Shown here: positions 25,856 through 26,085 of the stretch, one piece after another
How the letters are laid out: every line of letters starts with the position of its first letter
Numbering within the stretch: position 1 is the first letter of the stretch
IMG/VR virus record: IMGVR_UViG_3300023210_000015
Coordinates: 1-64,000 of that record
DNA length: 64,000 nt
Source of the DNA: a virus
Reading direction: 5' to 3' (one strand)
The notes under the pieces: generated by a model
Seen by the model: only the letters and a program-made list of their open reading frames with translations
Databases searched by the model: none
Told to the model about the DNA's origin: nothing
Made by a program: the position numbers and the translations under genes

Positions 25856-25910
25856 TAAAAATATTGTAAAAAATCTAATATGATTACTATAATGTTGTAA
25901 GGAGTTTAAT

Positions 25911-25967
25911 ATGTTTAGAAATTATACAAACGATTATGAGTATACCAAGGGGCTTATTGCCGCTTAA
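25911..25967 (+). CDS. Tyr-rich leader peptide MFRNYTNDYEYTKGLIAA* (not in the ORF track)
   Basis: TTGTAA...TATAAT promoter and AAGGAG RBS; 3 TAT codons; 3' end inside a long hairpin; Tyr-anticodon RNAs downstream. Confidence 0.65.
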   Translation: MFRNYTNDYEYTKGLIAA

Positions 25968-26023
25968 TCGTTTTATGTTTCTACACAATTAAGCCGCAAT
26001 TCTGCAAGACCCCACTCAATTAT

Positions 26024-26085
26024 GCCGCTTGTTCCGCATTGAAGTCTGTAAACACTGAAACACACTAATATGCGGATCAGGTTTT
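26024..26085 (+). pseudogene. Truncated, degenerate tRNA-Tyr-like RNA (5' part)
   Basis: Same layout as the 26719 copy: TCCGCAT/ATGCGGA pairing and a CTGTAAA loop; no T arm before the HNH gene. Confidence 0.45.

Follow-up and report, generated by a model that had tools for sequence, protein, structure and literature searches.

The window, by which we mean the whole stretch of DNA analysed, covers positions 1 to 64,000 of an IMG/VR virus record of 109 kb with an estimated completeness of ~23%, and its G+C content is 36.5%. The record belongs to a marine giant phage, and the identical sequence is present in many seawater metagenomes. ARAGORN called eleven tRNA genes and Rfam ten, none of which falls within 25700-27100. 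The following features lie in this interval.

25864-25893 (+): sigma-70-like promoter, predicted from TTGTAA (25864-25869), an 18-nt spacer and TATAAT (25888-25893)
25899-25904 (+): Shine-Dalgarno (SD) sequence AAGGAG, 6 nt 5' of an ATG
25911-25967 (+): 18-codon ORF MFRNYTNDYEYTKGLIAA*, probably translated, with its stop at 25965
25949-26013 (+): hairpin H1, whose 5' arm is the last six codons and the stop of the short ORF, with no U tract after it
26027-26086 (+): hairpin H2, with the core UCCGCAU/AUGCGGA, which an earlier note on this DNA took for the first tRNA-like RNA (copy A)
26079-26127 (+): hairpin H3, in which AGGUUUUUCC pairs with GGAGAAAUCU, covering the SD of the HNH gene (AAGGAG, 26116-26121)
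26130-26708 (+): free-standing HNH endonuclease gene of 192 aa with CDLHHI...CPNCHRLVH, whose homologues carry PF01844
26719-26810 (+): copy B, a non-canonical tRNA-Tyr(GUA), scoring 76.8 bits against the family model
26821-26876 (+): copy C, the 3' fragment of a second copy, with variable arm, T arm and 3' acceptor strand

The promoter hexamers, their spacing and the AAGGAG that had been claimed in the earlier note are all in the sequence. The short ORF is present as well, with its three TAT codons at 25923, 25935 and 25941 and with its ATG at 25911, one base before the implied 25912. Promoter-like hexamer pairs are common in this DNA (21 in 3.5 kb vs 15.6 expected). The exact arrangement TTGTAA-N16-19-TATAAT occurs at two sites when both strands of the 109-kb record are searched, at 25864 and at 18849, and we estimate the expectation from base composition at ~0.5. 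Of the 73 places in this genome where a strong SD is followed by ATG, 58 open into an ORF that is 60 codons or longer. Since SD and ATG together predict long ORFs here, the start of the short ORF is credible; the promoter is presumably used and the short ORF translated. The peptide ends ...LIAA, and a tmRNA tag was considered and rejected: a tRNA-like domain is lacking, and the ORF starts from an ordinary SD and ATG. No credible tmRNA was found by ARAGORN, even with relaxed settings, and none by Rfam.

The second exact promoter match belongs to a paralogous module, which lies before the Leu/Ser/Cys tRNA array.

18849-19004 (+): paralogous module, consisting of TTGTAA-N17-TATAAT, GGAG and the ORF MIKNYDNTINTEKDAHPNVIALSLSLLSSSLSSLCL* (18894-19004)

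In both modules the promoter is followed by GGAG, an ATG and a peptide that begins M[IF][KR]NYxN, and the two can be aligned collinearly over ~100 nt, from the -10 box to ~20 nt past the stop of the short ORF. The score of this local alignment was 39, compared to 25.5 +/- 4.1 for shuffles (7 of 500 as high, P ~0.015), and 7 of 389 other windows of the genome score as high; the alignment is only moderately significant, and common promoter, SD and ATG signals inflate its score. Past the stop the DNA is still similar (TAATCGTTTTATGTTTCTACAC vs TAATCGCTCTATCTTTATCAC, 17 of 22 positions identical), with the reading frame offset by one base, so that the short ORF may be the remnant of a longer leader that was truncated. 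The two ORFs are alike in promoter, SD, N-terminal motif and position upstream of tRNA genes, while their C-terminal halves are unrelated. The 18894 ORF, directly before the array, ends in a run of 15 consecutive Leu/Ser/Cys codons that uses many synonymous codons; a hairpin, GTGTCTC-TGA-GACAC, encloses its stop codon, and downstream of it lies a GGAC...GTCC stem with TTTTT behind it. In contrast, the Tyr codons of the 25911 ORF number two or three, are spaced apart and stand seven codons ahead of its stop. No such module head stands before the remaining tRNA loci of the phage (Lys, Arg, Gln), and a DNA pattern scan of IMG/VR found no homologue of the module. We accept that the promoter and short ORF form a real, duplicated module, a second and diverged copy of the head of the Leu/Ser/Cys array. 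The earlier note had seen here a second instance of a rule that matches leader codons to downstream tRNAs. The second copy of the promoter/SD/short-ORF module is supported, while the part of that claim that makes the Tyr codons a sensor is not supported.

A possible, if doubtful, account of this similarity is that the head of the Leu/Ser/Cys array was duplicated, that the copy was perhaps moved here by endonuclease-driven recombination, and that it has since decayed, with neither the peptide nor H1 functional any more. Such a duplicate could, just as tentatively, have acquired its early TAA through a 1-nt frame change relative to the 18894 ORF. Decay would fit the frame-shifted similarity that runs past the stop, the failure to find a homologue of the module in IMG/VR and a surrounding region full of partial copies of a tRNA-Tyr variant. 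However, the -35 box, -10 box, SD and ATG are each preserved and suitably spaced, H1 is far more stable than shuffled sequences, and the sequence is identical across several seawater studies, although the latter shows only one widespread clone. The strong start signals, and an N-terminal motif in common with a second small ORF, would also be expected of a small functional peptide unrelated to tRNA control; with 18 residues only, no homologue outside the genome and a paralogue whose C-terminal half is unrelated, we regard this as very unlikely.

The reading put forward in the earlier note is that the speed of the ribosome at the TAT codons chooses between H1 and a pairing of AAGCCGCA with TGCCGCTT, and in this way controls the folding, processing or read-through of the tRNA-Tyr RNA. 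Host defences that cut tRNA-Tyr are known (PMC13096335, PMC11555353), which would make such a sensor biologically sensible. As in leader attenuators, there is a 5' short ORF with its own ribosome-binding site (AAGGAG, 6 nt, ATG, 18 codons), its stop codon lies inside a stable hairpin, and the 15 terminal Leu/Ser/Cys codons of the paralogous ORF before the Leu/Ser/Cys array lend the idea further support. The codon usage (3.0% TAT, 3.9% Tyr) gives P ~0.012 for three TAT in 17 codons and P ~0.026 when any Tyr codon is counted. However, Y5 is part of the N-terminus common to the 18894 ORF, an ORF that no Tyr tRNA follows, and is discounted for this reason; the remaining two Tyr in 13 codons have a P of 6-9%.

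The hairpins themselves are stable. H1 pairs the arms GGGGCUU-AUUGCCGCUUAAU and AUUAAGCCGCAAU-AAGACCCC in a fold of -20 kcal/mol (z -3.5), and none of 200 shuffles was as good, which bears out the claim of a stable hairpin over the stop codon of the short ORF. H2 (26027-26082) folds at -18.9 kcal/mol (z -3.1) and is followed by UUUUU at 26082-26086, and H3 folds at -15 kcal/mol (z -3.7). All three coexist in a joint fold. H2 resembles a terminator in that U5 follows it, but it was not called by the terminator scan; it might instead be what remains of the 5' part of a tRNA-Tyr-variant gene. We also considered H1 as a decayed copy of the variant (acceptor-like GGGGCUU/AAGACCCC together with copy A) and rejected this, the family model giving only 4.4 bits over 25949-25998. 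Among HNH homologues, occlusion of the SD shows no clear conservation: the mean z was -1.6 with one third below -2, values confounded by the adjacent tRNAs.

The alternative pairing that the earlier note described can form: a second TGCCGCTT lies at 26023-26030 and pairs with AAGCCGCA (25991-25998) at 7 of the 8 positions, the exception being a C.C mismatch in the centre, with an energy of -6.3 kcal/mol. We folded 25895-26135 with ribosome footprints blocked at three ribosome positions. A ribosome that covers the Tyr codons leaves the inner stem of H1 (13 bp) in place, and AAGCCGCA is still paired with the 3' end of the ORF. The pairing with 26023-26030 does appear in one of the constrained folds, but only in that with the ribosome at the stop codon, which is the reverse of attenuator logic and does not support a switch of RNA folding by the Tyr codons. 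In attenuators the regulatory codons lie in segment 1 of the hairpin, whereas the Tyr codons here lie 5' of H1 and end 6 nt before it. Of H2, only the outer stem (5 bp) is in competition with the alternative pairing, while the core is constant in all states. The HNH SD likewise stays paired at all three ribosome positions and is never freed by the alternative pairing. If H2 and U5 acted as a terminator, a shortage of Tyr-tRNA would raise termination, the opposite of supply on demand.

Beyond the hairpins, the HNH gene encodes a putative free-standing homing endonuclease. Its motif CDLHHI...N...CPNCHRLVH is invariant in the alignment, it has its own start signals outside any intron, and adjacency to tRNAs recurs among its relatives. 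These relatives are encoded at 80 metagenome loci (L022-L101), almost all of them inside phage tRNA arrays as called by ARAGORN, and form 62 clusters at 80% identity. A tRNA lies within 400 nt of the HNH gene in 53 of the 62 clusters; in 28 of the 62 its immediate same-strand neighbour is tRNA-Tyr(GTA), a number that rises to 34 when the variant described below is counted. tRNA-Tyr makes up 29 of 77 HNH neighbours compared to 9.9% of all tRNAs in the loci (binomial P = 7e-11). These counts strongly indicate that this HNH clade preferentially adjoins tRNA-Tyr. A group I intron with the HNH ORF inside a tRNA was also considered and rejected, no intron family being found even at E 10 and the homologues being flanked by intact tRNAs. 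Elsewhere in the window, a second HNH-type ORF (1561-1989, 142 aa, ...CANCHTELH) extends into the 5' end of tRNA-Lys(CTT) at 1971, and endonuclease genes abutting tRNAs thus recur in this phage.

Copy B was missed by ARAGORN and by the Rfam tRNA model. We searched for similar RNAs using nhmmer with 26706-26880, followed by a regular-expression search, a covariance model and one scan of IMG/VR. The nhmmer search revealed uncalled look-alikes directly beside HNH homologues, and the variant family comprises 16 distinct sequences. Its members include L044:1248-1336, L049:3015-3100, L070:291-379, L073:700-786, L080:1030-1116(-), L085:691-775, L088:3010-3095, L090:2385-2471 and those at L143-L150. 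Seven of the 16 come from IMG/VR phage contigs without an HNH homologue (by tblastn, in the stretch fetched), and five of these seven lie within 1.5 kb of called tRNA genes. In several loci the variant is the only tRNA-Tyr in view.

The same architecture is found in all 16 sequences: the acceptor stem is 8 bp and the T stem 4 bp long, the anticodon arm carries GUA, the variable arm is long, and where a D hairpin would be there is instead a strand of 6 nt paired with the variable-arm loop. Copy B itself has the 8-bp acceptor stem and the 4-bp T stem but no D hairpin; its D-side strand is CCUGUU, and the partner of this strand in the variable-arm loop is GACAGG. Across the family, pairing in the D-strand/variable-loop helix reaches 94.8%, and 5 of its 6 pairs show compensatory changes, in an alignment whose model excluded this helix. 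All five helices covary across the 16 members, and no shuffle or slid control comes close. The earlier note had placed tRNA-Tyr-type RNA downstream of the leader, and such an RNA is real and conserved: copy B, at 76.8 bits and with covariation in its family, is the sole family member in the 109-kb record. Copy C matches model positions 36-79 with 16.3 bits and E 0.004 (26821-26867), and this repeat (D1) is 81% identical to B. Copy A (26024-26104) reaches 5.3 bits with E 2.3, which is not significant, and the RNA at 26023 is not supported as a first tRNA-like RNA. The GTA loops reported for the downstream RNAs are confirmed for 26719-26810 and are not convincing for 26023-26090. Beside two HNH homologues, T-arm/acceptor fragments of another tRNA trail the variant (L088:3096-3132 and L090:2472-2500); like copy C, they fit repeated partial duplication at such sites. 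Weaker matches to the variant model (29-38 bits), uncalled by ARAGORN, also lie beside HNH homologues (L095:746-840, L022:2370-2437, L039:2181-2276 and L039:1832-1927) and may be further atypical tRNAs.

A real tRNA-Tyr variant downstream favours a Tyr-codon leader. In an attenuator, however, the controlled gene follows directly, whereas the short ORF here is followed by a tRNA-like hairpin without a significant match, then by the HNH ORF and then, 750 nt downstream, by the tRNA-Tyr at 26719, copy B. An SD-led short ORF with at least three Tyr was found within 300 nt upstream at none of 38 HNH/tRNA-Tyr (or variant) loci, and a Tyr-rich SD-led short ORF at none of the seven IMG/VR tRNA-Tyr-variant loci. 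At 150 tRNA-array starts in the HNH loci, mostly array interiors, codon matching of short ORFs to the downstream isotypes was 0.41 compared to 0.37 permuted, and 63 of 300 permutations were as high, a weak negative. The cognate codons of an attenuator form a conserved cluster beyond chance; those here have a P of 6-9% without Y5 and are absent at related loci. Since the position of the codons relative to the hairpin, their clustering and conservation, and the placement of the controlled gene, three features that define an attenuator, all differ here, we consider a Tyr-codon leader unlikely. Its fuller form would be a short ORF that gauges Tyr-tRNA: Septu or retron-Eco7 PtuAB would cut tRNA-Tyr, ribosomes would slow at TAT, and the refolded leader would raise the supply of a remodelled, perhaps nuclease-resistant tRNA-Tyr. 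We regard this as quite unlikely.

The history of the locus was examined through its relatives. Contigs of four other seawater runs are identical to the record wherever they overlap 25836-27400, with no joints, and no endonuclease-free allele or other variation of the locus was found in those four runs where 25836-27400 is covered. Searches with the flanking genes, the HNH protein and the module found no diverged relative of the phage, and the module can be compared only inside the genome. No relative was found of the 209-aa neighbour protein and no close relative of the HNH protein in IMG/VR; homologues of the release factor were found only in non-syntenic contigs. A DNA pattern scan of IMG/VR returned nothing for the 3' end of copy B, and blastn against phage GenBank gave no match. 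The hexapeptide-repeat transferase (25268-25855) has one relative, 74% identical (L002:4001-4522), on a 188-kb phage contig that is otherwise unrelated and lacks the HNH/tRNA-Tyr locus, which suggests horizontal transfer of that gene alone. An AT-rich stretch of 38 nt that spans the -35 box (25844-25881) is matched with 6 differences in two other seawater runs. The matching contigs diverge on both sides of it, and this is therefore a similar stretch in another context or phage. An 18-nt direct repeat (25810/26697) was considered and attributed to chance, both copies being native coding sequence.

Collectively, these results lead us to favour, with a probability of about 0.45, a reading of the locus as the operon head of an HNH/tRNA-Tyr transcription unit rather than as a tyrosine sensor. 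The promoter and the well-initiated short ORF, a module re-used from the head of the Leu/Ser/Cys array, would start a transcript that passes H1 over the stop of the short ORF, H2 with its U5 and H3 over the ribosome-binding site of the HNH gene. Beyond the hairpins it would run through the HNH gene and into the linked tRNA-Tyr copy B and the 3' fragment copy C. Transcription from 25864/25888 would in this manner likely supply the tRNA-Tyr region. The most likely effect of H2 and H3 is to limit read-through and, on RNA that does read through, to hold HNH synthesis down, with the HNH ribosome-binding site presumably occluded in vivo. The partial tRNA-Tyr copies, A as well as C, would be scars of endonuclease-driven recombination, and the three TAT codons would be incidental. 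It counts against an operon head that, if H2 and U5 terminated efficiently, the promoter would not feed the HNH gene or copy B.

On this reading the phage re-uses one promoter/short-ORF head before two tRNA regions, and its Tyr region is built around a putative homing endonuclease whose relatives preferentially adjoin tRNA-Tyr. A Tyr-sensing leader, if true, would link the control of tRNA genes to the arms race over tRNA-Tyr in a way that is new in kind, though the results here fall short of it. With such a Tyr gauge and the 18894 leader combined, leaders matched in their codons to downstream tRNAs would be a general means by which this phage controls its tRNA genes. The more interesting by-product of the analysis is the conserved phage tRNA-Tyr class with a rearranged D region, of which copy B is the local member. 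Because this class is missed by standard tRNA finders, the tRNA-Tyr content of phages is under-counted.

Leader-peptide transcription attenuators are known from amino-acid operons, such as trpL, hisL and pheL of E. coli, and from pheM of pheST. The locus resembles them in that an SD-led short ORF precedes a structured RNA, the stop lies in a hairpin arm and a second segment can re-pair the freed arm. In contrast to attenuators, it has no run of regulatory codons, its candidate codons lie outside segment 1 of the hairpin, no canonical terminator stands directly before the regulated gene and the arrangement is not conserved in related loci; its product, moreover, would be a tRNA rather than a biosynthetic enzyme. 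In the homing-endonuclease genes of phage T4 (I-TevI and the seg/mob genes), hairpins occlude the ribosome-binding site. H3, which pairs the GGAG of the HNH gene with a U-rich strand upstream, is similar in its pairing; the T4 hairpins contain a late promoter. The setting of the HNH gene is comparable to that of SegB, a GIY-YIG free-standing homing endonuclease that lies beside tRNA-Tyr in the tRNA cluster of T4/T6 and drives tandem duplication of tRNA-Tyr and segB under Septu pressure (PMC2330249, PMC13096335). Like segB, the HNH gene is embedded among phage tRNAs, beside and co-oriented with tRNA-Tyr, with partial or duplicated tRNA-Tyr copies around it. The nuclease here is of the HNH rather than the GIY-YIG type, and its cleavage, target site and homing are putative. 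The published survey of SegB found no isotype preference, whereas the HNH clade here strongly prefers tRNA-Tyr. The geometry of copy B has parallels in allo-tRNAs, which have 8/4 acceptor/T-stem geometry (PMC5389517), and in the known D-arm-less mitochondrial tRNAs (PMC7609411): it shares with them stems of 8 bp (acceptor) and 4 bp (T), a long variable arm and the lack of a D hairpin. A 2020 review of non-canonical tRNAs contains no mention of phages or of pseudoknots. Copy B is distinguished from both groups by the pseudoknot-like pairing of its D-side strand with the variable loop, by its GUA anticodon and by being phage-encoded.
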